Positions 2,362 to 29,589 of a DNA stretch of 44,304 nt are shown piece after piece (within the stretch, counting starts at the first letter, position 1; each line of letters opens with the position of its first letter). The notes below the pieces were generated by a model. It saw nothing but the letters and a program-made list of their open reading frames with translations, was not told where the DNA came from and made no database searches. The DNA comes from Candidatus Heimdallarchaeota archaeon. Lineage in GTDB: Archaea; Asgardarchaeota; Heimdallarchaeia; Heimdallarchaeales; Heimdallarchaeaceae. The DNA lies in NCBI GenBank assembly GCA_021399345.1, contig JAAFKI010000170.1, positions 1 through 44,304 of the forward strand. Direction: 5' to 3'. The position numbers and the translations under genes are program-made.

Positions 2362-3003
2362 ATGAGCAAAATAGAAATTGTAAAAGAAGAAACAGGTCCA
2401 ATAAAGACTAACTGTTACCTTCTCTATGATGAAGTTAAGAAAGAAGCTGCTCTATTTGATGTAGGTGGGGAGATAAACCAAATTTTATCAATTATTGAAG
2501 GCGAACAATTGACTGTGAAGTATTTGTTCTGTACTCATCTACATTTTGATCATGTGCTAGGTTTAGAGGACATAAGACGGTTATTCCCTGAAGCTAAACT
2601 AGTATATAATGAAAGAGAAGAAGAAGTTCTCAAAAGTCTAGGTCCCTATGCTAGAATGTTTGGATTCAAATCAAAATCAATTGGAAAATGTGATATTTTT
2701 GTTGAAGATGAAGATACATTCAAAGTTGGAGATATAGAGATTAAAGCAATTTTATCTCCTGGGCATACTCCAGGAAGTATCTGTTACTATTTCGATGAAC
2801 ACTTGATTTCAGGTGATGTACTATTTAACAAGGGTATTGGAAGAACTGATTTACCTGGTGGAGATTATGATACATTGTTTCAATCAGTTATGGGTTTATA
2901 TGATCTCCCTGATGAAACGAAAGTTTATCCAGGTCATGGACCAACCACTTATATTGGCAATGAAAAACTAGAAAATCCTTTCATTTCAATAGATGATATG
3001 TGA
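2362..3003 (+). CDS. MBL-fold metallo-hydrolase (glyoxalase II-like)
   Basis: THLHFDH, SPGHTPGS, SGDVLF, GRTDLPGG and YPGHGP motifs. Confidence 0.92.
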   Translation: MSKIEIVKEETGPIKTNCYLLYDEVKKEAALFDVGGEINQILSIIEGEQLTVKYLFCTHLHFDHVLGLEDIRRLFPEAKLVYNEREEEVLKSLGPYARMFGFKSKSIGKCDIFVEDEDTFKVGDIEIKAILSPGHTPGSICYYFDEHLISGDVLFNKGIGRTDLPGGDYDTLFQSVMGLYDLPDETKVYPGHGPTTYIGNEKLENPFISIDDM

Positions 3004-3009
3004 TATAAA

Positions 3010-3681
3010 TTAACCATCCAGTATTTTTTCTAGAAAGTTCTGAATATCCTTAAAATTAGAAAATTCTACTAATCTTGGATCTTTATGGAGTTTTTTGGCT
3101 AAGTCTTCATTTCTTTTAGCAATAATATGATCAGCTAACTTCTCCGATGGAAGGATGTCAGAAAGTCCATCACCAATGTAAACCACTTTATCATGTTCTT
3201 CTTTGATTCTCAATACTTGCGAATATTTACAGTTTGCACAATCATGTTCACAATTATCAGTTAGAAATTTTAGATGAATTTTATTATCAACTAATTCCAT
3301 GTCATTAGCTTTTATTTCCAGCTTCTTACTATCAATTCCATGATTCTCAAGAATTCTGGTAATATAGGTATGAAAACCATCTGAGAGAATGATAAAAAAG
3401 ATTCCATTTTCTTTAATCCAGTTGTAAAAATCTAAAAATGTGGGATCTATCTTTATTCTATCAACGATTTCGTATATTTCATCCATCGTTGTATGCTCAA
3501 TCATACCCCATTGCTTGATTAAGGCTGCTCTGGTACCAATTTCACCATTTATTACTAATTTGTCATAATATTGCCAGTCTTTAGTTGTTAAAGAAGTTAA
3601 CATTTCTTTTCCTGTATCTGTTAAAGTTATAGTTCCATCAAAATCACAGCAAATAGCAATGTTCATTACACTAGTCTTCAA
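3010..3681 (-). CDS. HAD-IB phosphatase, MtnX-like
   Basis: DFDGTIT motif I, LSDG motif II, CxxxCANCK, YIGDGLSD motif IV. True start may be the ATG at 3666. Confidence 0.8.
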   Translation of the reverse strand: MKTSVMNIAICCDFDGTITLTDTGKEMLTSLTTKDWQYYDKLVINGEIGTRAALIKQWGMIEHTTMDEIYEIVDRIKIDPTFLDFYNWIKENGIFFIILSDGFHTYITRILENHGIDSKKLEIKANDMELVDNKIHLKFLTDNCEHDCANCKYSQVLRIKEEHDKVVYIGDGLSDILPSEKLADHIIAKRNEDLAKKLHKDPRLVEFSNFKDIQNFLEKILDG

Positions 3682-3741
3682 TTAGGATAAGAAAAGCTTT
3701 CCTATATACCTTCAAAATATGCCATTTGGTTACTTATTTAT

Positions 3742-5145
3742 ATGTTAAAGTTATGTAATGCCATTAGGGTGCAATTTATCGAAACCTTAGATTCATTGAT
3801 TGAAACTTCTATAAAACAAGGAACATCCTATACAGATGTACGTCATGGTAGAGTAGTTACCAAGAATATTATTGCTCAAAATGGTAAAATTGTAGATGAA
3901 AGAAATTGTATTAATTCTGGGTATGGGATTCGAATGCTCTCAGAAGGTATTGTGACCTTTACTTCAACTCCAAGAATTAGATTTGCAGAGAAAGAGATAA
4001 AGAAAGCAATTAGTGTTTCTAAATTGCTAACAAATTGGAAAAAAGGAATATCTGAACTAGCAGATGCCCCAGTAGCTGATTCATCAGCTGTTAAGAAACC
4101 TAAAATTAATTGGGTAGATTTAGGAAATGAGGAATTTGAGGAGAAAATTAGAGATTTAGATTCTTTTATCAATGAGTTTTTGAGAGTGGATTGCAGTATA
4201 GAGACTGATATTCAGTTAATTAATTGGTCAGAAAAATTTAGAAATTCTGAGGGTACAAGAGTTTATCAAGAATATCCTTATGTGATCCTCACTTTAACAG
4301 GTAGATTATCTAAAAATGGGAACCAACTAAAATATTACAAATCCTATGGTGGAATGGGTGGATTAGAAATACTTCCATTTGATAAAATGGAAGAAACATT
4401 AGTTTTTATTGAAACAATTAATAATATACAAAAAGCTAAAAACGTTGAACAAGGATTGCATAACTCTGTTCTAAGTGAGGATATGGCATGGACATTGAAC
4501 CACGAAGTTTTTGGACACTCATTAGAAGCTGATAACGTTCTTTCAGGTCGTTCTTTTAGTAGCGGTCTTCTAGGAATGAAAATAGCTCCATCTGTTGTAA
4601 GTGTTATAGATGACCCATATATAGAATCTTTAGGTTATTACGAATTTGATTCTGAAGGTGTTAAAGGAAGAGGAAATTTGTTAGTTGATGAAGGAATTTT
4701 AACTGATTTCTTACATAGTAGATTATCAGCAGCAGCTATGGGGACTGAATCTTCTTCTAATTACAGAGCTAGTGATTTCGAATTTTTACCACAGGTAAGA
4801 ATGAGTAATTTCTTCTTTGAGCCAAAAGATTATTCTGAAGAAGAGCTCTTTGAGCACGTGAAAAATGGTTTGTATATCGGTGATGGACTTGGGGGTTCTT
4901 CAGAACCTCAAACAGGGGAATACAACCTTGATGCTCAATTTGGTAGAGAAATAAAAAATGGGGAATTAGGTGATTATATACTTCAATTCCAAATCAGTGG
5001 CACTATGATGGATACTCTTTCCAAGATTGAACTAATAGGAGACAAGATTATTGCTCAACCAGGCAGTTGTGTTAAAAATAACCAACGTGTGTTTGTTGGT
5101 TCTATTGGACCGAAAATTACTATATCTGAGGTGAGGGTTAGCTAA
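3742..5145 (+). CDS. tldD: TldD family metalloprotease
   Basis: HEVFGHSLEAD (HExxGH), DDP, FDSEG, RMSN and C-terminal GSCVK. Start may be the GTG at 3769. Confidence 0.88.
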   Translation: MLKLCNAIRVQFIETLDSLIETSIKQGTSYTDVRHGRVVTKNIIAQNGKIVDERNCINSGYGIRMLSEGIVTFTSTPRIRFAEKEIKKAISVSKLLTNWKKGISELADAPVADSSAVKKPKINWVDLGNEEFEEKIRDLDSFINEFLRVDCSIETDIQLINWSEKFRNSEGTRVYQEYPYVILTLTGRLSKNGNQLKYYKSYGGMGGLEILPFDKMEETLVFIETINNIQKAKNVEQGLHNSVLSEDMAWTLNHEVFGHSLEADNVLSGRSFSSGLLGMKIAPSVVSVIDDPYIESLGYYEFDSEGVKGRGNLLVDEGILTDFLHSRLSAAAMGTESSSNYRASDFEFLPQVRMSNFFFEPKDYSEEELFEHVKNGLYIGDGLGGSSEPQTGEYNLDAQFGREIKNGELGDYILQFQISGTMMDTLSKIELIGDKIIAQPGSCVKNNQRVFVGSIGPKITISEVRVS

Positions 5146-6500
5146 TGTATACTGATGAAGAATTAAAAGATTTAAGCATCAGAGTACTGCATAAACTTGA
5201 TCAAAAATTTGGTTTTAAGGAGGCAGAAGTATATTTACAATCACTTTCACATATGATGGGTGGAACTGAATATAGAACTCCTAAAGTTTTTCAATCCATC
5301 AATAGAGAAGGTTGTGCTATTAGATTCTTTAAAGATGGTAGACTCTATTTTGCATGTTTTCCTCTCAAATCTGTTTTATCTGATATAGATAAAATAAATA
5401 CAATTGTATCTTTTCCAATTGATTCTCCTAAATTTGAGTTTCCTGAAATTAAGATATCTCAGGATGAGATTGATAATATTTATGACAAAAGAATAGCAGC
5501 TATGAATGAAGAAGAAATATATTCATTGTCATATTCCTTGAATGATTTAGAAGATAAAATGAAGGATATTATTCTAGATGGATCTATTCGATTCTCCTTA
5601 GAAAGAAAGATAATTGCTAATTCTACACAATCAATAGCTTTTGAAAAAAGTACTTGGAATGATATCAATCTTCGAGCTCTCTATAGGGGATTTGACCTGA
5701 TTTCAAGTTCAGAAAAACATCTAACTAGTCGTCAAATACTTAGTTCAGTATCTAGCATCGTTGAAGATTTAGTACAAGAAGCTATCCAAAGGTCTACCAT
5801 GGATGAAAACACAATAGACACTGATGTTCCAGTGATTTTCTCACCAATGGCTCTATCACAGATCTTTTCATTTACAATTATACCTCATCTGAAACTGGGT
5901 CATGCAGGAAAATTAGCTGAGCAAGATTTTTCATCAGATTTTAATTTAATTGATGATGGAACCGTTCCAGGGCTTCCCAATTCCACAGCTTTTGATGATG
6001 AAGGAATAAGTCAATCAAGAACTATAATCATCAGAAACGGCTCTTTCCAAACAGCATTAAATAACTGTCAAAATGAGGTTGAACCAGTTGAAAGAACTGG
6101 AAATTCCTTCAGAGTAAAAATGTTTGAAGTTTTCCCAAGAAACTTTCAAGCTTATCCCGAAATCTATCCATCTAATTTAATAATTGGTGAAGGAGAAACA
6201 TCTTTAGAACAAATGTACGATGATACAAAAGAGTGCATCTTAATTAATTCCACACAAGGTTACATGACAGCAGATCATCACTCTGGTACATTTAAAGTAT
6301 CTGCAAATGATGCATATAGAATCGAAAATGGTTCAATTAGTGGAGCATTACCTACTTTTGATTTAATTGGAAATATGTTTGAAGTTTTATCTGAAGAACC
6401 GCTTTTTCTAAAAGATCGAAAGGTTGTTAGGCCAATTAATACTCCATATAGTGTTCTAGCCCCATATCTTTCTACAAAAAGGGTAGAACTATTTCCTTGA
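5145..6500 (+). CDS. pmbA: TldE/PmbA family protein (non-catalytic partner)
   Basis: TAATG coupling to tldD; IDDGT...FDDEG, TGNSFR and PSNL motifs; lacks HExxH. Confidence 0.82.
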   Translation: MYTDEELKDLSIRVLHKLDQKFGFKEAEVYLQSLSHMMGGTEYRTPKVFQSINREGCAIRFFKDGRLYFACFPLKSVLSDIDKINTIVSFPIDSPKFEFPEIKISQDEIDNIYDKRIAAMNEEEIYSLSYSLNDLEDKMKDIILDGSIRFSLERKIIANSTQSIAFEKSTWNDINLRALYRGFDLISSSEKHLTSRQILSSVSSIVEDLVQEAIQRSTMDENTIDTDVPVIFSPMALSQIFSFTIIPHLKLGHAGKLAEQDFSSDFNLIDDGTVPGLPNSTAFDDEGISQSRTIIIRNGSFQTALNNCQNEVEPVERTGNSFRVKMFEVFPRNFQAYPEIYPSNLIIGEGETSLEQMYDDTKECILINSTQGYMTADHHSGTFKVSANDAYRIENGSISGALPTFDLIGNMFEVLSEEPLFLKDRKVVRPINTPYSVLAPYLSTKRVELFP

Positions 6501-8629: not shown

Positions 8630-9511
8630 TTATTTTTCCCATAATTCAAGTATCTTGAAAATCAAACCAACACCAAAATTTAATGCTGTTCTATTGAGTA
8701 ATGAATGTCTGAATTCTACTATGTCAACGTATTTAGTTTTAGGTAAAATAATTTCTAGCATTTCTACAACTAACTGAGGAGTCAATCCAAAAGGTTCCAT
8801 AGTAGCAAGAGTGGGGACATATGCTTGATCAAATGCATCTGCATCAATACTCACATAGATTCTGTCAAAATTGGAAACAAATTCAGAGATAACCTTTAGC
8901 GAATCATCCTTATTTGAAAATATCTTCTGAGTTGGTAAATGAATTACTTCTTTCTGATTTTGAATCTTCAAATATTCTGTAGTGGTTTGAGTATAGGCAT
9001 GACCACCTATAAACAACATCTGATTTTTTTTCAGTTCCAATTTGTCTTTCAGATTAGCGAAAACAGTACCATGAGATTGAAAGATTCCAGGTGGATATTC
9101 ATCTGCTAGGTCTGAATGTGCATCGAACCAAATTATGGCGGTTTTTTCATCCCATGGTGCAAGAGAAAGTGTATCGAAAGTTATACTATGGTCTCCTCCT
9201 AAAACTAAAATTCTAGAACTTAAATCTAAAGCCTTATCCCATAGTTTTTGGATTTTCTTCTTTTCCTTAACTGGATGAAAATTTCCAATATCATAGTAGT
9301 TTGTTTTATTCTGATAAATGTTAAAAGTAGTTGAAACTGCACTAAACTCAAGAGATTTCTTCCTAAGGGCATTGGGAGCTTTTCTAGACCCCTTCTTGTT
9401 ATCTTTTGTTCTTTCGAATGGAATGCCGAAAAGAAAGAGTGCATTTTTTTCTTTAAGTTTATCTAATGATTCATAAGATTGGTCAAAGAAACCTAGAAAT
9501 GTGTTTTTCAT
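8630..9511 (-). CDS. Ureohydrolase (agmatinase/arginase family)
   Basis: GIPFE, GGDHS, DAHSD, SHGT, SIDADAFD and EPFGL; Mn ligands intact. Confidence 0.85.
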   Translation of the reverse strand: MKNTFLGFFDQSYESLDKLKEKNALFLFGIPFERTKDNKKGSRKAPNALRKKSLEFSAVSTTFNIYQNKTNYYDIGNFHPVKEKKKIQKLWDKALDLSSRILVLGGDHSITFDTLSLAPWDEKTAIIWFDAHSDLADEYPPGIFQSHGTVFANLKDKLELKKNQMLFIGGHAYTQTTTEYLKIQNQKEVIHLPTQKIFSNKDDSLKVISEFVSNFDRIYVSIDADAFDQAYVPTLATMEPFGLTPQLVVEMLEIILPKTKYVDIVEFRHSLLNRTALNFGVGLIFKILELWEK

Positions 9512-9555
9512 TGTCTTGAATTATATTATCTCAATAGAATAAAATTATTTTGATA

Positions 9556-12150
9556 TCATTGTTCCTTTAAGTAATAATCAGGAGAAGTTACAAATCTATT
9601 CTCATCATCAGCATCTCCTACTTCAAAATCAGTGTAAATTTCTTCCATAATTTCCTTATCACTTATGTCCGCTAATATTTTACGCTTATCAACTGAAATG
9701 ATTCTGCTTAATTCTATGGTTTTCGGATTGAATTTTTCCATTGTTTCTTCCATTTGAGTGAGGTTTCCGATTTTGCCTATGAGATTCATAAAGGTCATCA
9801 CAATGTCAGGTCTGAGTGCAACTTGTGGAGCAATACTCAGTTGTTTGCCTATAGAAATAGCTAAGTTGTCGATGAAATTCTGATCTTTCTCAAACAGAGA
9901 AGCTGGACGATCGCTGATGAAGGATGCAATTAATAATAAATCAATTGATGTCCATAAATAGAGGAAGGGTTTTTCCATTAGTTGTAAATTATATACAATG
10001 CCAATTTCTGTGCCTTTGACGTTTTCAACTACTTTACCTTCTAAATCAAATATTTCATTTAACTCAAATGATGGAGCACCGTAACTAACCTGAATCATAT
10101 TACCAATCTGCCTAACATTGCCCATCGAATATAGTGAGAATTTAGAATTTTCTACTTTTTCAGGGAGAATTCCTGAGTTTTTCTCAATTAAAATACTTTT
10201 CAACATTTCAATGTTATCTATTTCATCTTCAGTTCTGCCGTATTCTTGTGCAAAATCTTCTAGAATCTTTTTCTTTTTATCTCGGAGAGATAATTTAGTT
10301 CGAGAAATGAGAGGTTGGTTGTAAACATCATAAAAGAAATCATAAATTATTCCGAAAAGATCAGCAGATACTTTCTTCTTCTCTACGACAAGGAAGTATC
10401 CTTTCATAGGATGATATATGACAGAATGAGCCTTACCAATTGCTTTTCCAAAAACATTTCTTGCAGCAATATCTTTGTTTTCAGTAATTTTATCATTAAT
10501 CATATTGCTCTCTGCTGGATTGAAATAAGGAAGTAAATCACCTTTTTGGATAATGTCTTGACTTTTTATTCTCATTTCTCTTGCTGTTTTCTCTGTCTTC
10601 TCAATTGGAACAAATAGATAATTTTGAGGTTGAAGAATTATATCAATTATCTCATCAGTTAATACTGAACCCTTAATCTTACAATATTCGATAATCGCTT
10701 CTGGTATTAAATATGTAAAAGGCATTTGTGGTATATTTTTAGGTAGCTCATTTAACAGAAATTCCTTTTTCTCTTTTTCATTTTCTAGTTCAGCTTCTCC
10801 ACTGATTGGTAAAACTATATTATCGTAAATCCTTCTGACCATAGAGAGTGATAACTCTTGTTGTTGCCTTAGAATTATACCAAATTTCTCATTTAGTTGT
10901 CCTGGACCGACCACAAAACCAACTAAATCCTTTTGTTCATCAATAACAGGTTTACCAGAATATCTCCAAAGAGCTTTAAGTTCTGATAACAGCTGATAAT
11001 CTATTTCCCTACTTGAAGCACTAGTTGCAACTGTTAATTGATTGCGAAATTGTAGGGCACTAATAATTTCACTATATTTTTGAATACGATTTTCTGTTTC
11101 AAGTGTTAGATCTTTGAAGTATGGAGTTATTATTTCTTGATACTGTAGATGCTCTCCATAAATTACATCCAGAGCATCCAAATCTTTAGCATAATCGTTA
11201 ATATCTTCATCTAATAGCTCTTCATAAATTTCGAGTTGTTTGATTTTTCTTGTTAATTCATTAATTTGAGCTTCAGAAATTTCATCTATGTTGTTCTCCT
11301 TGAAAAGTCTGAAATTTTCTCTTTCCTGTTGAATAATAACCTTCCATCTTAGAGTATCTTGAGCGGCTTTTCGGAGAATAGGTCTATGTCTTAACACTCT
11401 TTCATTAATATCATAGATTATTCCCTTCAATTCTTTTTTATCAGTAACTAAACGTCTTAACCTATTGATGTTTTCACTCAATTCATTGTTAAAAAGGAGA
11501 AAATTATTGTGAGTGTTTTTGTATAAATGTTCTGTGCTAACAGAAAATAATAACTCAGATAATTTGTAAAAGTGTTGAAAGATTTTATGTTGCTTGGCTT
11601 CAACTTCATTCTTCTTCAACATATATTCCTGGTCATCAAGTTTACCAGACACATATTCTTGCTCCCAAGCCATCTCCTCTTCAAATGTCTTTGTAGCTGC
11701 TTTTATAGCCATATTCATAACATATCTTACTTTTAATTCTTCAATTTCAATGGGAGGAATTTCTTCAAGCTCAATAATAGGAATTTCAGTTGCTTTAACG
11801 ATTTCGACTTCAGTTGGTACAAACACTTCTTCTGTTTTAATTTGAGGTTCACCAGTTTCAGTTTCGGTTTCGGTTTCGATTTCGGTTTTTGCTGGTATTA
11901 ATATTTCTCCTCTATGAATTTGATGTATGTCCTGTTCAACTTCAGGTAATTTTTGTTTAGTTTCTTCTAGTTCTTTCTTTTCCTCATCTGCAGTAATAGT
12001 TTTTGGAAGATTTGCTAGAAGTTCCTTATATTTGTTTTTTAAAGTTTGATAGGTTCTTCTATCAATTGAACCACGGATGTAACGTAAATCTAAATCTCTA
12101 ATAAATCGGAGAATACGTCTTCTCTTAACGTTTACTTCATCGTCTAACAT
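9556..12150 (-). CDS. Large protein with CdvA/SHOCT-like helical motifs, coiled coil and three PRC-barrel-like repeats
   Basis: Helical motifs LRYIRGSIDRRTY and EYVSGKLDDQEY. Three motifs of the GxxVxD/NxxGxx(I/V)GxV type, each closed by a downstream beta-strand pair. Confidence 0.6.
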   Translation of the reverse strand: MLDDEVNVKRRRILRFIRDLDLRYIRGSIDRRTYQTLKNKYKELLANLPKTITADEEKKELEETKQKLPEVEQDIHQIHRGEILIPAKTEIETETETETGEPQIKTEEVFVPTEVEIVKATEIPIIELEEIPPIEIEELKVRYVMNMAIKAATKTFEEEMAWEQEYVSGKLDDQEYMLKKNEVEAKQHKIFQHFYKLSELLFSVSTEHLYKNTHNNFLLFNNELSENINRLRRLVTDKKELKGIIYDINERVLRHRPILRKAAQDTLRWKVIIQQERENFRLFKENNIDEISEAQINELTRKIKQLEIYEELLDEDINDYAKDLDALDVIYGEHLQYQEIITPYFKDLTLETENRIQKYSEIISALQFRNQLTVATSASSREIDYQLLSELKALWRYSGKPVIDEQKDLVGFVVGPGQLNEKFGIILRQQQELSLSMVRRIYDNIVLPISGEAELENEKEKKEFLLNELPKNIPQMPFTYLIPEAIIEYCKIKGSVLTDEIIDIILQPQNYLFVPIEKTEKTAREMRIKSQDIIQKGDLLPYFNPAESNMINDKITENKDIAARNVFGKAIGKAHSVIYHPMKGYFLVVEKKKVSADLFGIIYDFFYDVYNQPLISRTKLSLRDKKKKILEDFAQEYGRTEDEIDNIEMLKSILIEKNSGILPEKVENSKFSLYSMGNVRQIGNMIQVSYGAPSFELNEIFDLEGKVVENVKGTEIGIVYNLQLMEKPFLYLWTSIDLLLIASFISDRPASLFEKDQNFIDNLAISIGKQLSIAPQVALRPDIVMTFMNLIGKIGNLTQMEETMEKFNPKTIELSRIISVDKRKILADISDKEIMEEIYTDFEVGDADDENRFVTSPDYYLKEQ
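11855..11888. repeat. Imperfect hexanucleotide repeat (GTTTCR) encoding a Glu-Thr low-complexity tract
   Basis: gtttca gtttcg gtttcg gtttcg atttcg within the CDS, giving TEIETETETET. Confidence 0.6.
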
Positions 12151-12290
12151 TCTTAATAGAATTAAAGATTGTACGTATTCAAATATGTTCCTAAATTACC
12201 CAATTGAAAAATATCTAGAACGATAGGTATAAACTAATCTACCCGTAAGAAAAATATTTAATACTATAAGGAATAAATTAATTTAGAAAT

Positions 12291-12295
12291 GGTGA
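12291..12295 (+). promoter_or_regulatory. Archaeal Shine-Dalgarno GGTGA of the profilin gene
   Basis: GGTGA 7 nt before ATG 12303; the same motif precedes the genes at 6606 and 16968. Confidence 0.6.
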
Positions 12296-12302
12296 AAGAA
12301 TC

Positions 12303-12662
12303 ATGAGTTTTCAAGACGATGTTGTAGTAGCTGCACAGGAAGGAACCGTTGGAGTGGTTTGGTTAATTGGGGATGATTTGAAATGTTATTATCAATATGG
12401 TGACTGGGCTGTTGATCCTACAATACCTTTCGATTCGTGGAAAAATCAAAAACCAAGCGTTGATTTTGGCGGAGGTTTAAAATTTACAGTGATCACAATG
12501 TCTCCTGAGAGATTGATCTCAACCAATATGGGAGGTCAAGGACATTTAATTGTTGCCCGTTGTCCAAAATGGGCAGGTTGTGTAATTTCTTGGTGTCCAG
12601 CCACTATTCAAAAAGACATAGCTTATGCTACTACAGCAAGACTCGCGGCCAAAGTAGCTTAA
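12303..12662 (+). CDS. Asgard-type profilin (actin regulator)
   Basis: 119 aa. GLKFTVITMSPERLISTNMGGQGHLIVARCP resembles the Asgard profilin core as I recall it (GIKYxVVxxxxERxIxTNxxGxGHxxxxP); QxGDW in the N-terminal half. Confidence 0.8.
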   Translation: MSFQDDVVVAAQEGTVGVVWLIGDDLKCYYQYGDWAVDPTIPFDSWKNQKPSVDFGGGLKFTVITMSPERLISTNMGGQGHLIVARCPKWAGCVISWCPATIQKDIAYATTARLAAKVA

Positions 12663-12684
12663 TTGGGATTCAATTGGTGTTTTT

Positions 12685-12987
12685 TTGATTTCACATCCGT
12701 CTATTGAAATTAGGAATGAAGAAATTTTTTTATCAATTAGAGTTCATCCAAAATCTTCAGTAAATAGGATTGATGTTACTGATTTTTCGATAGATATCTA
12801 TGTTAAGGAGCCAGCAGATAAAGGAAAAGCAAATAGATCAGTATTAAGTTGCTTAGCTAAAACATACAAAATTCCCTCCTCTTCTCTTTCTATTTCTCGA
12901 GGGTTAAAGTCCAGAAATAAAATAATTGTAATAAAGGATCAAAATAATGATTTACTTTTTAAGAAAATAATTGGAAAGCGTTTTTAG
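12685..12987 (+). CDS. DUF167/YggU family protein
   Basis: IRVHPKS, EPADKGKAN and GLKSRNK motifs. Confidence 0.9.
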   Translation: MISHPSIEIRNEEIFLSIRVHPKSSVNRIDVTDFSIDIYVKEPADKGKANRSVLSCLAKTYKIPSSSLSISRGLKSRNKIIVIKDQNNDLLFKKIIGKRF

Positions 12988-13550
12988 AGTTTCATCTTTT
13001 CAAATGCTCGGAGCAACTCATTTCTTTCATTAAACCGATTTTGTACGCTGCTACTCAGATTCATCAGAGATGCGATATTACCCTCTACTGTATCTAACAT
13101 CATCTCTTCCAGTTTGATTTTTACATCTACTATTTTATCTTTAAATTCTTCAGCGTTATCCAAAATATCTATTTCTAGTAAGTAGAGGATAGACAAATCT
13201 ATTCCATGCTCACCTTCAACTTCTTTTACATCAAAAAAAGTGCTGTATTTATAATCTGTGCTTGCTGTCTCTTTTCTCATATCTGAAACGATTTTCATGA
13301 CTATTCCTGCTGGACCCCAGCTTGTTAATAGTTGTGAATGGATTAGAAGTTCATGCACTTGACTCATCATGTCTCCAGTTTCCCTCATTATTGTAAGTAA
13401 TTTTGTTCTGAAAGCTACATCAGAATCTCTTCTTAGCTCTAATTCTTTGTATCCGTGATAGTTTTCAATATTCGTCCTAAGAATTTTCAGGGCCTCACTG
13501 GGTTTCTTTGAAATTTCTTCTTCAGACAAATTCTTTTTCTTACCGAACAT
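12984..13550 (-). CDS. Conserved hypothetical alpha-helical protein
   Basis: IENYHGYKELELRRDSD and YSTFFDVKEV...LYLLE resemble a widespread uncharacterised family (IPGyxGYxExExRRxxD), from memory. Confidence 0.6.
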   Translation of the reverse strand: MFGKKKNLSEEEISKKPSEALKILRTNIENYHGYKELELRRDSDVAFRTKLLTIMRETGDMMSQVHELLIHSQLLTSWGPAGIVMKIVSDMRKETASTDYKYSTFFDVKEVEGEHGIDLSILYLLEIDILDNAEEFKDKIVDVKIKLEEMMLDTVEGNIASLMNLSSSVQNRFNERNELLRAFEKMKL

Positions 13551-19917: not shown

Positions 19918-20658
19918 ATGAGCGATTCTATTCCTATTTTTTTCGATTTTGGAGGAACTTTAGTTGATACTTTAGAAGTCACTCGTCAAGTTTTCAAAGA
20001 AGCTTTAGGAAAAGATTTCCCGAGCACCAAAATTAAACAGATGTACAAAGATGCATCCAGAAAAGGACAAAGTATGTCAATGTTTTTCAAATATCCAGTA
20101 AACCCTGTTAAACTCTTGATTAAGAAAAACAAAATGGCCTCTCTTCAGAAAAAAAAATTTATGGAAATAGTTGAATTATATCCTGAAATACAAGAAACTT
20201 TGTTAAAGATCAAAGAATTAGATGAAAATATCTCACTCATTTTGGTTACACAGAATCCACTTATGGAGGATGAAACTGCTGCTAATATTTTGATGGAGAA
20301 ACTTTTTGGTGAAGATAATCCTTTTGACCAGCTCTTAGCTGGAGATGACAAATTTGAGTTAATTGTTCACAATTTCGATCCAGATGCAATCGCTAGAGGG
20401 ATTTTTGTTGGTGATTTGCCAAATGATGTTTATGTTTCAGAGATGTTAAAAATTCCTTGTTATGGAGTAACTTGGGGCTATTCAGATGAAGGAGAGTTAA
20501 GCACTCCATTTATTGTGGATGAAATATCAGAACTCATAGAAATGGTAGAAGATCACCTAGAAGATTTAAAGGGTGAATCGTTAGAAGAGATAGAAGAGAT
20601 TGAATTTGAAGAAATAGAATTTGATGAGACTGATGATTTTGAACTAGTTGATGAATAA
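19918..20658 (+). CDS. HAD-superfamily hydrolase-like protein with acidic tail
   Basis: FFDFGGTLVDT, LVTQN, FVGDLPND, GVTWGY; E/D-rich C-terminus. Confidence 0.75.
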   Translation: MSDSIPIFFDFGGTLVDTLEVTRQVFKEALGKDFPSTKIKQMYKDASRKGQSMSMFFKYPVNPVKLLIKKNKMASLQKKKFMEIVELYPEIQETLLKIKELDENISLILVTQNPLMEDETAANILMEKLFGEDNPFDQLLAGDDKFELIVHNFDPDAIARGIFVGDLPNDVYVSEMLKIPCYGVTWGYSDEGELSTPFIVDEISELIEMVEDHLEDLKGESLEEIEEIEFEEIEFDETDDFELVDE

Positions 20659-20665
20659 AGAGAAG

Positions 20666-20989
20666 TTATGAATTGATGTCAAGTATGAATTCTGCAACTT
20701 CTTTAGCTACTCTTGAAATTTTATCCTTATTAGTATCGATTAATTCTGCTGATTCTTTTTCAGCTTTAATTATTAACTGTTCGAACTGCTTTGTATCTCT
20801 CGCTTCCTCGATTTTCTTTTTGAGTATCTCTCTCGCTTCATGTTTTGCCTGTTCCAACCTTCTTACTCTATCACTTTGAGCTTTTTCAATTAGAAAAGAT
20901 GCTTCAGTATTAGCTTCTGATACAATTTGATCTGCTTGTCGTTCAGCAATCTTTATTTGTTCTATAATCTCTTGTTCTTTTGATGGCAA
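20666..20989 (-). CDS. A/V-type ATPase peripheral stalk subunit H (G)
   Basis: About 107 aa, all-helical EAE/KA pattern (IEQIKIAERQADQIVSEA). TTG start at 20989 preceded by GGTGAG; alternative GTG at 20998. Confidence 0.75.
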   Translation of the reverse strand: MPSKEQEIIEQIKIAERQADQIVSEANTEASFLIEKAQSDRVRRLEQAKHEAREILKKKIEEARDTKQFEQLIIKAEKESAELIDTNKDKISRVAKEVAEFILDINS

Positions 20990-22038
20990 ATATCTCACCG
21001 GACATATCTTTTCTCACTAGTTATGTAAGAGGGCAACATGCTAAACTTCTTTCTAATGAAGACTTTGAAAACTTAATAAATAAACCTTATGAAGCCTTCA
21101 TAAATCATCTGACTTCTTTTGAAATTGGTGAGATTCTTAGGTTAGAGCCATCTTATCAATCCCATGAGATAGAGCGTATTCTAACAAGACAATTGTTAGA
21201 TCAGTATGACTTCATACTTCAAAACATGCCTAAATGGGGAAAAGAATTTCTTGAAGCATATATGATAAAATTTGAAGTAATGAATCTTCAGAGGATTATT
21301 AGATACCTCTACTCAAAAGCTCAAGTCAATTTAAGAGATGTAATTAATTTGCGAGCTCAAGAGATGCTTGGGAGAACTTCCTTTATAGCAAAACTTCTCC
21401 AGAGTGAAGATTTAGGCGTTTTTCTTGAGAGAATAAAACAAACAGAGTATAAGAAGGTAATCGAAATATCTGAAAAACTTTATAGTAAAGTGGGAGATAT
21501 CTGGCCACTTGAGTTTGCTTTAAATGTCCACTATTTGAATTTAATGTTAGAAAAAGCTCAAAAACTTCCTAGAAATCAAAGAAGCGGTGCATTAAGTTTT
21601 GTCTATCAAGAGCTGATTACAAGTGTTCTCCTCGTTATATTAAAAGCTGATTTTGTAAATGTTGATGTAAAGGATGCTTTAGAGTTAATCACATTGCCAA
21701 AAGATATACCATTCAGACGACAGATTGTATCCCTTGCTGATGAACGAAGTTTAAACATTGACTTAGAAATTCTCAAATCCTTAAATCAAGCTAAACTAAC
21801 TGAAGGTATAGAGCGATATGAGAAAGATAAAATGTTTTTACACATAGAGATTGCTTTGAGAGCGAGAGAATTAGAATTTATAAGAAAGGTTTACTATAGT
21901 GACTTTGGACTTTTAAGTATCCTCTGTTATCTTAAACAATACGAAGCTCAGATTCAGGATTTGAACAAATTGTTATATCTCAAGGAGTATAAGTTCCCTG
22001 TTGAAAAAACCAGGGAATTAATTGTAAGCCTTGTTTAG
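20983..22038 (+). CDS. atpC: A/V-type ATPase subunit C (d/AC39 family)
   Basis: YVRGQHAKLLSNEDFENL, KFEVMNLQRIIR, IKQTEY, LEFALNVHY and ILCYLKQYEAQIQDL; about 350 aa; ATPase locus context. Confidence 0.8.
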   Translation: MANISPDISFLTSYVRGQHAKLLSNEDFENLINKPYEAFINHLTSFEIGEILRLEPSYQSHEIERILTRQLLDQYDFILQNMPKWGKEFLEAYMIKFEVMNLQRIIRYLYSKAQVNLRDVINLRAQEMLGRTSFIAKLLQSEDLGVFLERIKQTEYKKVIEISEKLYSKVGDIWPLEFALNVHYLNLMLEKAQKLPRNQRSGALSFVYQELITSVLLVILKADFVNVDVKDALELITLPKDIPFRRQIVSLADERSLNIDLEILKSLNQAKLTEGIERYEKDKMFLHIEIALRARELEFIRKVYYSDFGLLSILCYLKQYEAQIQDLNKLLYLKEYKFPVEKTRELIVSLV

Positions 22039-22048
22039 ATGAACATCG

Positions 22049-22528
22049 TCAAACAACGATATTTAGGAGTATGAATGCAATTAGCAGACCATAAATTGCT
22101 AACGCCTCACCAAGACCTAGATAAATCAGATTTGGTGTGAACACTTCTGAATTTGCTGTTATTGAACCAATAGCTGCTGGCTCTCCTTTTGCAAGTGTAA
22201 TTGCTGCTCCTAGATTAGATACAACCATAATGAACATAGCTGCAATGTAAATCCAACCGTAAGTTAGACTAAAATCTGCTAATTGCAAAGTACCATCAAG
22301 ATAAGGTTGAATCTTCGTATACATTACAAATGCTATTAAGAGCCCATATATAGCTAAGGCCTCCGCTAAAGCTAAATAGATTAATATGAAAATATTTAAT
22401 CTCTGCTTTTCTGCAACAGCTGCAGCAGCTGCTTGAACTCCTTTTGCTAGCGGAATACCAGCTCCCAAAATTGTTAGCATAGTTCCTGCGATTCCAATTA
22501 TTCCTAATACATATCCTTCAATTGCCAT
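22049..22528 (-). CDS. atpK: A/V-type ATPase proteolipid subunit K (c), two-hairpin 16-kDa form
   Basis: Two repeats, LALAEALAIYGLLIAF and LGLGEALAIYGLLIAF. Confidence 0.92.
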   Translation of the reverse strand: MAIEGYVLGIIGIAGTMLTILGAGIPLAKGVQAAAAAVAEKQRLNIFILIYLALAEALAIYGLLIAFVMYTKIQPYLDGTLQLADFSLTYGWIYIAAMFIMVVSNLGAAITLAKGEPAAIGSITANSEVFTPNLIYLGLGEALAIYGLLIAFILLNIVV

Positions 22529-24572
22529 ATTTACTCAAATCCATTTCTTTATTGAAAACAAAAACTGGTTTATGTTGAATTCCACTTCCTTCATAGAATT
22601 TACTGAAGAATTCATAAAAATGTAATCTTAAAGTTTGAACAAAAACTAATAAACCTTCAAGAACTAGTACAAAGATATTACCAATTACTAAAATTAGTAT
22701 TTTAAAGAGAATAAACCCAACTTGTTCAGCTAATGCATTAATAACACTCAGGAAAACCGCATGAGCAATGAGCATTGCAAGCATTCTTCCATAAGAAATA
22801 GTGTTACTTATGAAAGAGCTGAATGATTCTAGAAGGTGAATTAACCCCATCCCCATTCCACTAAGAAAACTACGAAATATATTTTTTCTCTTCTTTTTGA
22901 ACAAGATAGCCACAATCCCATGACCAAAAAGCGTTAATCCTACTCCAATAATGACAGAAACAAGCCCAACTAAAAGAAAGCCTCTACCTGCTGGATCAAT
23001 TCCAATGTTTAGAATTCCAAGGCTGGAAAGAAAATATATAATTGCAGCATAAAGAAAAACTTGAGGAGTTGTTTGTTCTAATATTTCTGAATACTCCTTA
23101 TGTCTTATTTGATTTATTGTTCTAAGAATTATTCCTAAAATGACATGAAGAGCTCCTATTATCAAAGTTAAGTTGAAAATTTCTACTAAATCCTTAATTG
23201 GACTTATAAAGGGATATTCTAATCCAAATAGATATACTGGGTTAGTATACCCATGTTCTCTAATCCCTAATATCTCAACAATATGAAAACCAAAGGCTTC
23301 ACCAAAAATGAATCCCATGATTGACGAAGTTATACCCATTACTAGTACAAGTAAAAACATTTGCCTAATACTCTTTTTCAACCCCCTAGCCAATACTCCA
23401 GTTAAACCAATTACAAGAAAAATTAGACCGTGACCTACATCACCAAACATAATTCCAAAGAAAATACTAAATGTAAAAATTAAGAAAATCGTTGGATCGA
23501 CCTCGTTAGATGCAGGTAGTCCATAAAGAGCTACAATATTCTGAAATGCGCTCTTAATAGGATTCTTTGCAGTAGCTACAGGGATATTTTTCATCTCTTC
23601 TGGAGGTTCATCATATTCCAGTATTACTTCTGGAAACTCACCTATAGTTTCCTCAATTATCCCAATTTCCTTTTCTGATACCCATCCTTGAAAAACTACT
23701 ATTTTCTTGGTTTGCTTTGCGGAAACGTATATGTTTAAGAAGTGACTATAGCTTTCGATTGACAATTTTATTGCAACAATGTCTTCTTTGTGTTTTATTG
23801 CAAATTGATTTAGGTCATTTTCGATTTTAGATACTTCTTCACTTAAGTTATTAAATTCATTTAGAATTTCTTCCTCAAGTTCAGTTTTGTTTAAATGAAT
23901 CGGACCTTGATAGTTGTATTTATACCATCTTACAATAGATAGTTCTTTGATAAGTTTGGATATTTCTCCTTTTTTTCCTCTAACGTAAACAAAATGTCTA
24001 TCTTTAACTAAGGAAATTACTTCTTGTTTCTTAAAATGGGAAACAAAGTTTTCCGCATCTTCTATTCTAGATGTTGTTAATACACCTATTAATGCACTCT
24101 CATCAGAATCTACGTTATACGGCTGTTCTTCTTCTATAAGTCTAAAACCTTTAGCAATTAGTTGGTCATTTTCTTTTAATTCAGTAAGTTCTTCCAACTT
24201 ATTCTTTAAATTCTTAAGTTCACTGTTAAAGTTACTAATCTGATTTTCTAGTTTTGTTTCTATATCTTCTAAATTATCCCAGTTCTCAAAAATAGGTGAT
24301 ATCGTTTTCTGTTTTTTATAAGCTCTAGCTATTTTTTGTCTAAATTTCTCTTTAGGCTCAGGAATTTGAACTATAAGATCTTTATAAGCTGATTCTAATT
24401 GTCTAATTGTTTCCATTTTGGATGATGGATAAAAGTCTTCCAATCCGTCTATCGATATACTGTGCTTTACCATCAAACTTTCTGTTTCAGCTATTCTAAT
24501 AACTACTTGAGGAAACACATCTTTTGGTGTTATTATCGTTGCTTCTAACATTTTATCTGGAAATAAACCCAT
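22518..24572 (-). CDS. atpI: A/V-type ATPase subunit I (a)
   Basis: FQGWV, YGLP...EVDPT, FFGIMFGDVGHG, SNTISYGRMLA (essential Arg), LRLHFYEFFSKFY. ATG 24572 follows an AGGTGA SD; alternative GTG at 24581. Confidence 0.95.
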   Translation of the reverse strand: MGLFPDKMLEATIITPKDVFPQVVIRIAETESLMVKHSISIDGLEDFYPSSKMETIRQLESAYKDLIVQIPEPKEKFRQKIARAYKKQKTISPIFENWDNLEDIETKLENQISNFNSELKNLKNKLEELTELKENDQLIAKGFRLIEEEQPYNVDSDESALIGVLTTSRIEDAENFVSHFKKQEVISLVKDRHFVYVRGKKGEISKLIKELSIVRWYKYNYQGPIHLNKTELEEEILNEFNNLSEEVSKIENDLNQFAIKHKEDIVAIKLSIESYSHFLNIYVSAKQTKKIVVFQGWVSEKEIGIIEETIGEFPEVILEYDEPPEEMKNIPVATAKNPIKSAFQNIVALYGLPASNEVDPTIFLIFTFSIFFGIMFGDVGHGLIFLVIGLTGVLARGLKKSIRQMFLLVLVMGITSSIMGFIFGEAFGFHIVEILGIREHGYTNPVYLFGLEYPFISPIKDLVEIFNLTLIIGALHVILGIILRTINQIRHKEYSEILEQTTPQVFLYAAIIYFLSSLGILNIGIDPAGRGFLLVGLVSVIIGVGLTLFGHGIVAILFKKKRKNIFRSFLSGMGMGLIHLLESFSSFISNTISYGRMLAMLIAHAVFLSVINALAEQVGFILFKILILVIGNIFVLVLEGLLVFVQTLRLHFYEFFSKFYEGSGIQHKPVFVFNKEMDLSKYGN

Positions 24573-25227: not shown

Positions 25228-25656
25228 TTATACTGGAAAAAGTAAGACAGGTGTTTCTGACAATTCGACTACATACCTAACATAGTTTTTCAATAGTCTT
25301 TTTGTATAACTTTCCTTCCTTGTTCCCATAACTATGAAATCAACCTTTTCAGTTTTAGAGGTTTCAATTATTCTTTCAGCAACTAATCCTTGATCTAGTT
25401 CAGAAGTCATTAACAAATGAGTATCTGAAAAAGCAAGCTTGAGTTTTTCAAGAATGTTAGCATACTGAATGTGATATTCTTCTAGAATATGTTCAATAGT
25501 TGTGTTTCTATAACTAGCTAGAAGTTCTACATTTTCTCTATCAATTACATACAACAAATGTATTTCTGTAACCCAATCAAAGAAGAAATCAAGAATTTGA
25601 GAGATTAGATTTTTACCGCTTTCAAAATCTCCTATTGCAATAAGTGCTTTTTTCAT
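25228..25656 (-). CDS. Universal stress protein (UspA family)
   Basis: KKALIAI, IHLLYVID, GLVAERIIE, DFIVMG and TPVLLFP. Confidence 0.85.
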   Translation of the reverse strand: MKKALIAIGDFESGKNLISQILDFFFDWVTEIHLLYVIDRENVELLASYRNTTIEHILEEYHIQYANILEKLKLAFSDTHLLMTSELDQGLVAERIIETSKTEKVDFIVMGTRKESYTKRLLKNYVRYVVELSETPVLLFPV

Positions 25657-29497: not shown

Positions 29498-29589
29498 TTT
29501 GTGCAGTTGAATTTCATATAATAAATAGTTTACTCACTGACCATATTTATAGCACAAAGCTTTAAACAAACAAATAGCTTGTATTTTCA
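29498..29589. promoter_or_regulatory. Probable bidirectional promoter between atpA and atpF
   Basis: 92-bp divergent gap. TTTAAA at 29561-29566 lies about 25 bp upstream of the atpF ATG. Minus-strand TATAAATA (29551-29544) and TTTATTATA (29525-29517) lie upstream of atpA. Confidence 0.5.

Follow-up and report, generated by a model that had tools for sequence, protein, structure and literature searches.

The window analysed here is a 44,304-nucleotide (nt) stretch of DNA from Candidatus Heimdallarchaeota archaeon, with a G+C content of 33%, and represents a whole contig of an 88.6%-complete metagenome-assembled genome (MAG). Within it, atpC and atpH, which encode two subunits of one A/V-ATPase, lie head-to-head on opposite strands, and their coding sequences overlap by 7 nt at the starts. 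This overlap is demonstrably real, conserved and old, being retained in relatives whose subunit C is only 46% identical. Each of the two genes additionally contains a patch of conserved synonymous sites that resembles a promoter directed at the other gene. Judged from the sequences, atpC and atpH are probably separate divergent units with reciprocal embedded, face-to-face promoters, and we favour this arrangement over read-through from atpK to atpH.

The atpC gene (positions 20983–22038, + strand; 351 aa; A/V-ATPase subunit C/d, PF01992) starts with ATG at 20983, and atpH (20666–20989, − strand; 107 aa; H/G-like peripheral-stalk subunit) starts with TTG at 20989–20987. The shared positions 20983–20989 read ATGGCAA here and ATGTCAT in distant relatives. 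The atpH Shine-Dalgarno (SD) motif, GGTGA (20995–20999, − strand), begins at −10 of the H start and lies in codons 5–6 of C (TCA CCn). An original prediction made from this DNA had described both starts, the 7-nt overlap and an SD, GGTGAG, inside the C coding sequence; the open reading frame (ORF) listing and the sequence agree with it in each of these respects and place GGTGA(G) at 20999–20994. At their other ends, atpC and atpH are separated from the convergent stops of atpK and of a HAD-family hydrolase gene by 10 bp (22039–22048), without room for a terminator, and 7 bp (20659–20665), respectively, exactly as that prediction gave them. The corresponding gaps across the genus are 1–18 bp (C–K) and 2–19 bp (H–HAD).

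We compared the junction with 20 same-genus loci from whole genomes of other species, with 20 named GenBank MAG contigs ("Candidatus Heimdallarchaeota", AB_125 among them) and with two more distant relatives, namely G043, a genome of a second genus (g11), and L086, an ENA contig. The gene order HAD(+)/H(−)/C(+)/K(−)/I(−) and the exact 7-nt overlap were present in all 20 same-genus loci, and the arrangement was found again in the 20 MAG contigs, including AB_125. Position 1 of H was exactly 6 nt beyond position 1 of C in every one of the 20 fetched genus loci, across which identity drops to 61% for C and 52% for H. Both G043 and L086 (C 46% identical) have the junction ATGTCAT, in which C and H each start with ATG. 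The recurrence of the overlap in the genus loci, the MAG contigs, G043 and L086 excludes chance and misassembly. Gene orientation in related genomes had been proposed as a check on the original prediction, and the head-to-head junction is indeed the same in the genus, in g11 and in L086.

The positions of both start codons are well defined. The ATG of C is invariant across all loci, a TAG stop immediately precedes it in several relatives, and no in-frame ATG, GTG or TTG occurs between 20983 and the SYVRG motif. The next in-frame start downstream in H is found only near codon 45. No downstream in-frame start (ATG, GTG or TTG) of either gene preserves the conserved N-terminus. The H start codon was TTG in 19, GTG in one and ATG in one of 21 genus loci; because variation at this single position is restricted to start codons, we take 20989 to be the real H start. 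In the same frame upstream of the TTG are a GTG at 20998 and a TGA stop at 21014–21016. The GTG at 20998 was rejected as an H start, as it belongs to the conserved GGTGA, while the TTG/GTG/ATG variation falls at 20989.

To assess synonymous sites, third-position identity was calculated in 6-codon windows of the H and C codon alignments from 17 non-redundant species (<93% nucleotide identity), with 5000 permutations. The top window of H was codons 11–16 (CAA ATA AAG nTT GCT GAA), where third-position identity was 1.00 against a gene mean of 0.66; none of the 5000 permutations reached this value, and the third positions of all six consecutive codons were invariant in the 17 species. On the + strand, upstream of C, these codons read TTCAGCAAnCTTTATTTG, and they hold the putative TFIIB recognition element (BRE)/TATA promoter of atpC, TTCAGCAATCTTTATTTG (20942–20959, + strand; TATA core 20952–20958). 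In C the highest value fell on codons 32–37 (ATA AAT AAA CCT TAT GAA), whose third-position identity was 0.98 compared with a mean of 0.65 over the gene (permutation P = 0.0002); the longest invariant nucleotide run of C is also found there. On the − strand, upstream of H, these codons read TTCATAAGGTTTATTTAT, which we consider the putative BRE/TATA promoter of atpH (21076–21093, − strand; TATA core 21084–21076). Read in the direction of the partner gene, both patches have the same form, an A-rich BRE-like stretch followed by a TTTATTT TATA box. Among control genes, the highest third-position windows were only 0.83 in K and 0.79 in HAD, and subunit I attained high values only in its 3′ end (0.97 at the overlap with the K start and 0.95 ~30 codons upstream of it, at the VQTLRLHFY motif).

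The TTTATTT box upstream of C occupies −31 to −25 of the C ATG, with TTTA starting at −31, and carries AA at the BRE positions −4/−3. No purine-rich SD was found upstream of the C ATG. A genome-wide profile was obtained from 1,432 ATG-initiated ORFs of at least 150 aa in the source genome. TATA-like heptamers peaked sharply with their first base at −30/−29 from the ATG, which indicates that leaderless mRNAs are common in this genome; GGTGA had its peak at −9 to −12 relative to the ATG, and the genome has SD-led genes too. Given the box at −31 and the lack of an SD, the C mRNA is predicted to be leaderless, with a start at 20982/20983. The predicted atpC promoter has the features of a leaderless archaeal promoter, that is, a TATA box centred ~26–28 nt upstream of the start codon, an A-rich BRE and no SD. 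With a position weight matrix (PWM) trained on leaderless promoters of contigs other than the window contig, the atpC box was the best site on the + strand between 20700 and 21000. The box is present in G043 and L086 as well. Elsewhere in the window, the 92-bp divergent gap between atpA(−) and atpF(+) at 29498–29589 contains the TATA-like boxes TTTATTAT and TTTAAA, each ~26 nt from the ATG of its own gene when read by eye, and both genes therefore also look leaderless. Like atpC, atpF is on the strand opposite to the ATPase core genes.

The atpH box starts 95 nt upstream of the H TTG, and no − strand site from 21400 to 20980 scored higher with the PWM. Its TTATTTA was invariant in 18 of 18 aligned sequences, G043 included, and L086 has a T/A-rich box at this position. 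From the location of the box, the H transcript is predicted to start at ~21054/21053, where a conserved purine pair ("aG") is found, and to have a leader of ~65 nt. In regard to translation, the complement of the H SD, TCACC, was kept in 17 of the 18 aligned sequences; the remaining one (L079) has GGAGA, and GGAGA at the SD position of L086 was likewise read as SD-like. The Ser5 codon of C was TCA in 16 of 17 species. The location of GGTGA at −10 is inside the SD window of the genome.

Several observations weigh against the reciprocal embedded promoters. The K–C gap in the genus is tiny, and no conserved T-run follows atpK, so that read-through from atpK into antisense atpC could occur in this genus. 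Within the 44-kb window, 40 PWM sites of at least 8 bits occur on both strands, many of them inside genes; the motif alone consequently proves little, and we dropped the PWM as sole evidence and weighed it only together with conservation and position. The patches coincide with conserved protein motifs, QIKxAE in H and INKPYE in C, and part of the nucleotide conservation is thus due to the protein. Moreover, most of the signal in the genome profile points to leaderless mRNAs or short leaders, and an H leader of ~65 nt would exceed these.

Among the alternatives, the one that survives best is a non-contiguous operon, in which the A-B-D-usp-E-I-K transcript would continue through ~1 kb of antisense atpC and supply most of the H expression, an H promoter being absent or minor. 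The read-through transcript would then double as antisense RNA to atpC. The gene order fits this model, since atpC lies on the opposite strand between atpK(−) and atpH(−), and the concept is established in bacteria (PMC7154746). The missing conserved terminator between K and C is compatible with it; a T6 run at 22004–22009 (− strand) was considered as such a terminator and rejected, because it is not conserved (Glu342 is GAG in most species). Runs of five T (T5) also occur inside the sense genes of the operon, so a lone T5 is not an efficient stop. On the other hand, T5 and T7 runs stand directly after atpK, before antisense atpC, in genus g11, the conserved TATA-like element ~95 nt upstream of H lies at synonymous sites of C, and H retains its own SD. 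All species have one to seven runs of T5 or longer on the antisense strand of atpC, roughly double the number on its sense strand; their positions vary, and we give them little weight. The K–C gap of g11 is 80 nt and contains a T5 and a T7 run on the strand of K and another T7 run on that of C; several T-runs follow H, and neither the promoter-like boxes nor the SD have been lost. In g11, K, C and H therefore resemble three units that end separately. We consider expression of H mainly by read-through unlikely. The original prediction had allowed for either a promoter inside each partner gene or an antisense transcript running from A to K and on to H. The first possibility is favoured by the synonymous peaks and the T-runs of g11, and the second is less supported; by the same token, its label of an interleaved, non-contiguous operon is not the best-supported description of the locus.

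A second alternative accepts the overlap and proposes that the conserved synonymous patches are not promoters and that transcription starts elsewhere. The patches would then be binding sites of a regulator, features of mRNA 5′ ends or translation, or by-products of protein or codon constraint. Besides the protein motifs encoded by both patches, the frequency of TATA-like PWM matches in AT-rich coding DNA speaks for this explanation. The invariance of third positions in 17 species, which extends to a four-fold Ala codon and a three-fold Ile codon, speaks against it. The Lys codon is AAG in 17 of 17 species, where AAA would be commoner by our own expectation for an AT-rich genome. The shared form of BRE and TTTATTT on the opposite strand and the exact leaderless distance of the C box argue in the same direction. 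A structured RNA as the cause of the patches was rejected, as RNAalifold detected no conserved folding of either the H leader or the 130 nt at the 5′ end of the C mRNA (−0.94 and −0.36 kcal/mol, respectively, with no covariation). We regard an origin of the patches other than promoters as improbable, more so than read-through from atpK.

As a separate observation, the second peak of atpI (window 22600–22640, − strand; alignment columns 677–683) holds TTTAAGA, which precedes the atpK ATG by ~104 nt and is thus placed much as the putative promoter of atpH is. The peak may mark an internal promoter for extra proteolipid expression or may reflect protein constraint alone.

Finally, an artefact of misassembly, or of true starts further downstream that leave an ordinary divergent promoter gap, both of which the original prediction had named as possible refutations, is highly improbable, because more than 40 independent assemblies share the junction, the H start position holds only TTG, GTG or ATG, no in-frame alternative start retains the conserved N-termini, the family models begin 8–12 residues past the proposed C and H starts and some other annotation pipelines do call the 7-nt overlap, even though automatic annotation often shortens C to 270–341 aa instead of 351 (P0004, P0015, P0017–P0028) and placed the C start of L086 63 nt downstream (L086 713). 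Gene finders apparently shun the head-to-head overlap, which leaves many public atpC calls N-terminally truncated. Of all kinds of gene overlap, the head-to-head overlap of coding sequences is the rarest, and it is usually written off as an annotation error.

According to the arrangement with reciprocal promoters, atpC would be read from the BRE/TATA element in H codons 11–16 into a leaderless mRNA whose first nucleotide is that of the ATG at 20983 or the one preceding it, and atpH from the element in C codons 32–37 into a transcript with a ~65-nt leader. The GGTGA and the TTG start of H lie in the first six codons of C, and the two putative promoters would face each other ~125 bp apart. From the predicted start sites, the C mRNA and the H leader would overlap at their 5′ ends by ~70 nt (20982–21054, both strands). 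Wherever upstream of its ATG the transcription of atpC may begin, the overlap would cover at least the ribosome-binding site and start codon of H (20989–20999). The first 17 nt of the predicted leaderless C mRNA are the exact complement of this ribosome-binding site and start codon. A polymerase from either promoter would have to cross the other promoter. Since polymerases would cross the opposing promoter and the C 5′ end is complementary to the ribosome-binding site of H, some reciprocal interference would be physically expected.

It is doubtful that this layout has a selected regulatory role rather than being merely tolerated after an inversion. A further proposal, which we likewise put forward only tentatively and think rather unlikely to hold, is a conserved archaeal "mini-excludon". 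Here the promoters would interfere with each other, the C 5′ end would pair with the ribosome-binding site of H so as to block both translations or trigger RNase III-like cleavage, and the C:H ratio would thereby be fixed or switched and assembly of the second ATPase controlled. The suggestion of the original prediction that the overlap tunes the stoichiometry of C and H or controls A1-Ao coupling is purely conjectural. A gene with an RNase III domain (PF14622/PF00636, above cut-offs) was found at G000:C180:31818-32189 (L089). Of 31 Heimdallarchaeaceae genomes, 27 encode such a domain, the two closed genomes among them; four archaeal control genomes all lack it. This gene is relevant to the processing of double-stranded RNA (dsRNA) in the lineage.

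Known systems resemble the atpC/atpH locus in part. As the original prediction had stated, both excludons and non-contiguous operons are known from bacteria (PMC7154746). Divergent excludons with overlapping 5′ ends have been described in Listeria, S. aureus and E. coli (PMC7154746, PMC12288877). The locus shares with them the divergent neighbours and, if the predicted start sites hold, would share a 5′ transcript overlap in which each mRNA is antisense to the other, with an expected interference by polymerase collision or dsRNA cleavage in a lineage that has an RNase III-domain gene. It differs in that the coding sequences themselves overlap, both predicted promoters are intragenic and the overlap of the transcripts would be short (~70 nt). 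Furthermore, C and H do not oppose each other in function but are subunits of one enzyme, they belong to an archaeon, and the C mRNA is predicted to be leaderless. Excludons are also defined by mutually exclusive expression, in which one partner represses the other; between C and H such repression would be conjectural. In coliphage 186, the face-to-face sigma-70 promoters pR and pL in non-coding DNA belong to a lysis-lysogeny switch. The likeness would consist of opposing promoters a few tens of bp apart and transcriptional interference; the putative archaeal TATA/BRE boxes of the present locus, in contrast, lie inside two structural genes. Bidirectional promoters of Pyrococcus furiosus have one TATA box and two diverging starts ~50 bp apart (PMC6640164). 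They share with this locus the archaeal TATA/BRE logic and close starts on opposite strands that lead to antisense RNA, whereas the two boxes ~125 bp apart would here drive converging, overlapping transcripts.

According to the summary of Saenz-Lahoya et al. 2019 in PMC7154746 (atlas in PMC11034616), Staphylococcus aureus also has an opposite-strand gene between genes of one functional set, in its non-contiguous operon menE-menC-MW1733-ytkD-MW1731. The co-transcription of the flanking genes that defines it in the summary is disfavoured here by the T-runs after atpK in g11 and by the promoter-like element upstream of H. On balance, the C/H layout would work like a divergent excludon or a face-to-face promoter pair, and would be distinguished from them by the coding overlap, the intragenic archaeal signals, the leaderless mRNA and the partnership within one enzyme.

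By sequence comparison, the head-to-head pair is part of a divergent, clade-specific extra A/V-ATPase cluster. In the genomes of this genus and in G043, the C gene and the A/B pair are each present twice. The other ATPase set of the source genome is dispersed, with A-B alone on L063 (G000:C115) at 2399–5631 and a long subunit I (1067 aa) and a C pair on L045 (G000:C123) at 9071–13267, adjoining actin and prefoldin genes. Two closed genomes of another genus in the family have the dispersed set only. No homologue of the window-type C below E = 1e-10 was found outside the clade among 5.8 billion proteins, and the other C genes within the class match it at only 20–26% identity. The window-type I is at least 49% identical inside the clade and at most 33% outside. 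For these reasons the ancestral order could not be recovered, and no relative of the cluster with atpC in the operon orientation was found. In the closed genomes of the sister genus (L054/L058 = G045:C1:1845132-1848329; L055/L059 = G046), the housekeeping atpA lies in an open frame of 1096 aa. Its similarity to subunit A falls into two separate blocks, as an insertion of the intein type would produce.

The canonical archaeal A1Ao operon, as in Methanosarcina and Methanocaldococcus, has the order atpHIKECFABD. The Heimdall cluster contains the same nine subunit families in the order F(+), A-B-D-usp-E-I-K(−), C(+), H(−), with F divergent from A. It differs from the canonical operon by C and F on the other strand, by an inserted universal stress protein (Usp) gene, by the head-to-head overlap of C and H, and by being a second set beside the dispersed housekeeping set. 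The layout is the one expected if atpC had been inverted once, long ago, within a K-C-H run, and it would then have been fixed in the clade-specific second A/V-ATPase cluster of Heimdallarchaeaceae. No inverted repeats, sought as a trace of an inversion or of an invertible switch, were found at the borders of atpC. An invertible switch was rejected on this ground and because all assemblies show a single orientation of atpC.

The match of C to PF01992 was clear (1.1e-28; 101 bits against a cut-off of 29), with the model spanning residues 13–345, and its cluster neighbours are K, I, E, D, B, A and F. Matches to their Pfam families were likewise obtained for K, I, E, Usp, D, B, A, F and HAD. The best matches of H were AhaH (TIGR02926), V-type subunit H and V-ATPase G, all under the curated cut-offs (AhaH 23.4 bits against 48.5; PF16999 21 bits against 28), and a PDB profile search with H gave V-ATPase G at E = 0.015. 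H thus gave no above-cut-off AhaH or V-ATPase_G match. We accept the small minus-strand ORF as a probable atpH on weak but consistent evidence, with the caveat of these sub-threshold matches, because its top matches agree, its size and coiled-coil character are suitable and H is the sole subunit otherwise missing from the cluster. The flanking genes are the HAD-family hydrolase gene (19918–20658, + strand; ORF listing and Pfam) and atpK, a two-hairpin proteolipid (22049–22528, − strand; PF00137) that closes the A-B-D-usp-E-I-K run. The universal stress protein gene within this run is at 25228–25656.

In regard to annotation, the atpC entries of the second ATPase in Heimdallarchaeaceae need correction, since gene callers often truncate this gene. 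The promoter and ribosome-binding signals that appear to be written into the synonymous sites of the partner gene would constitute a clear dual-coding signature. C, F and H of the extra ATPase are predicted to be expressed apart from the A–K core. If the mini-excludon were true, it would set the rotor socket (C, one copy) against the stator stalk (H, two or more copies) of this second ATPase.

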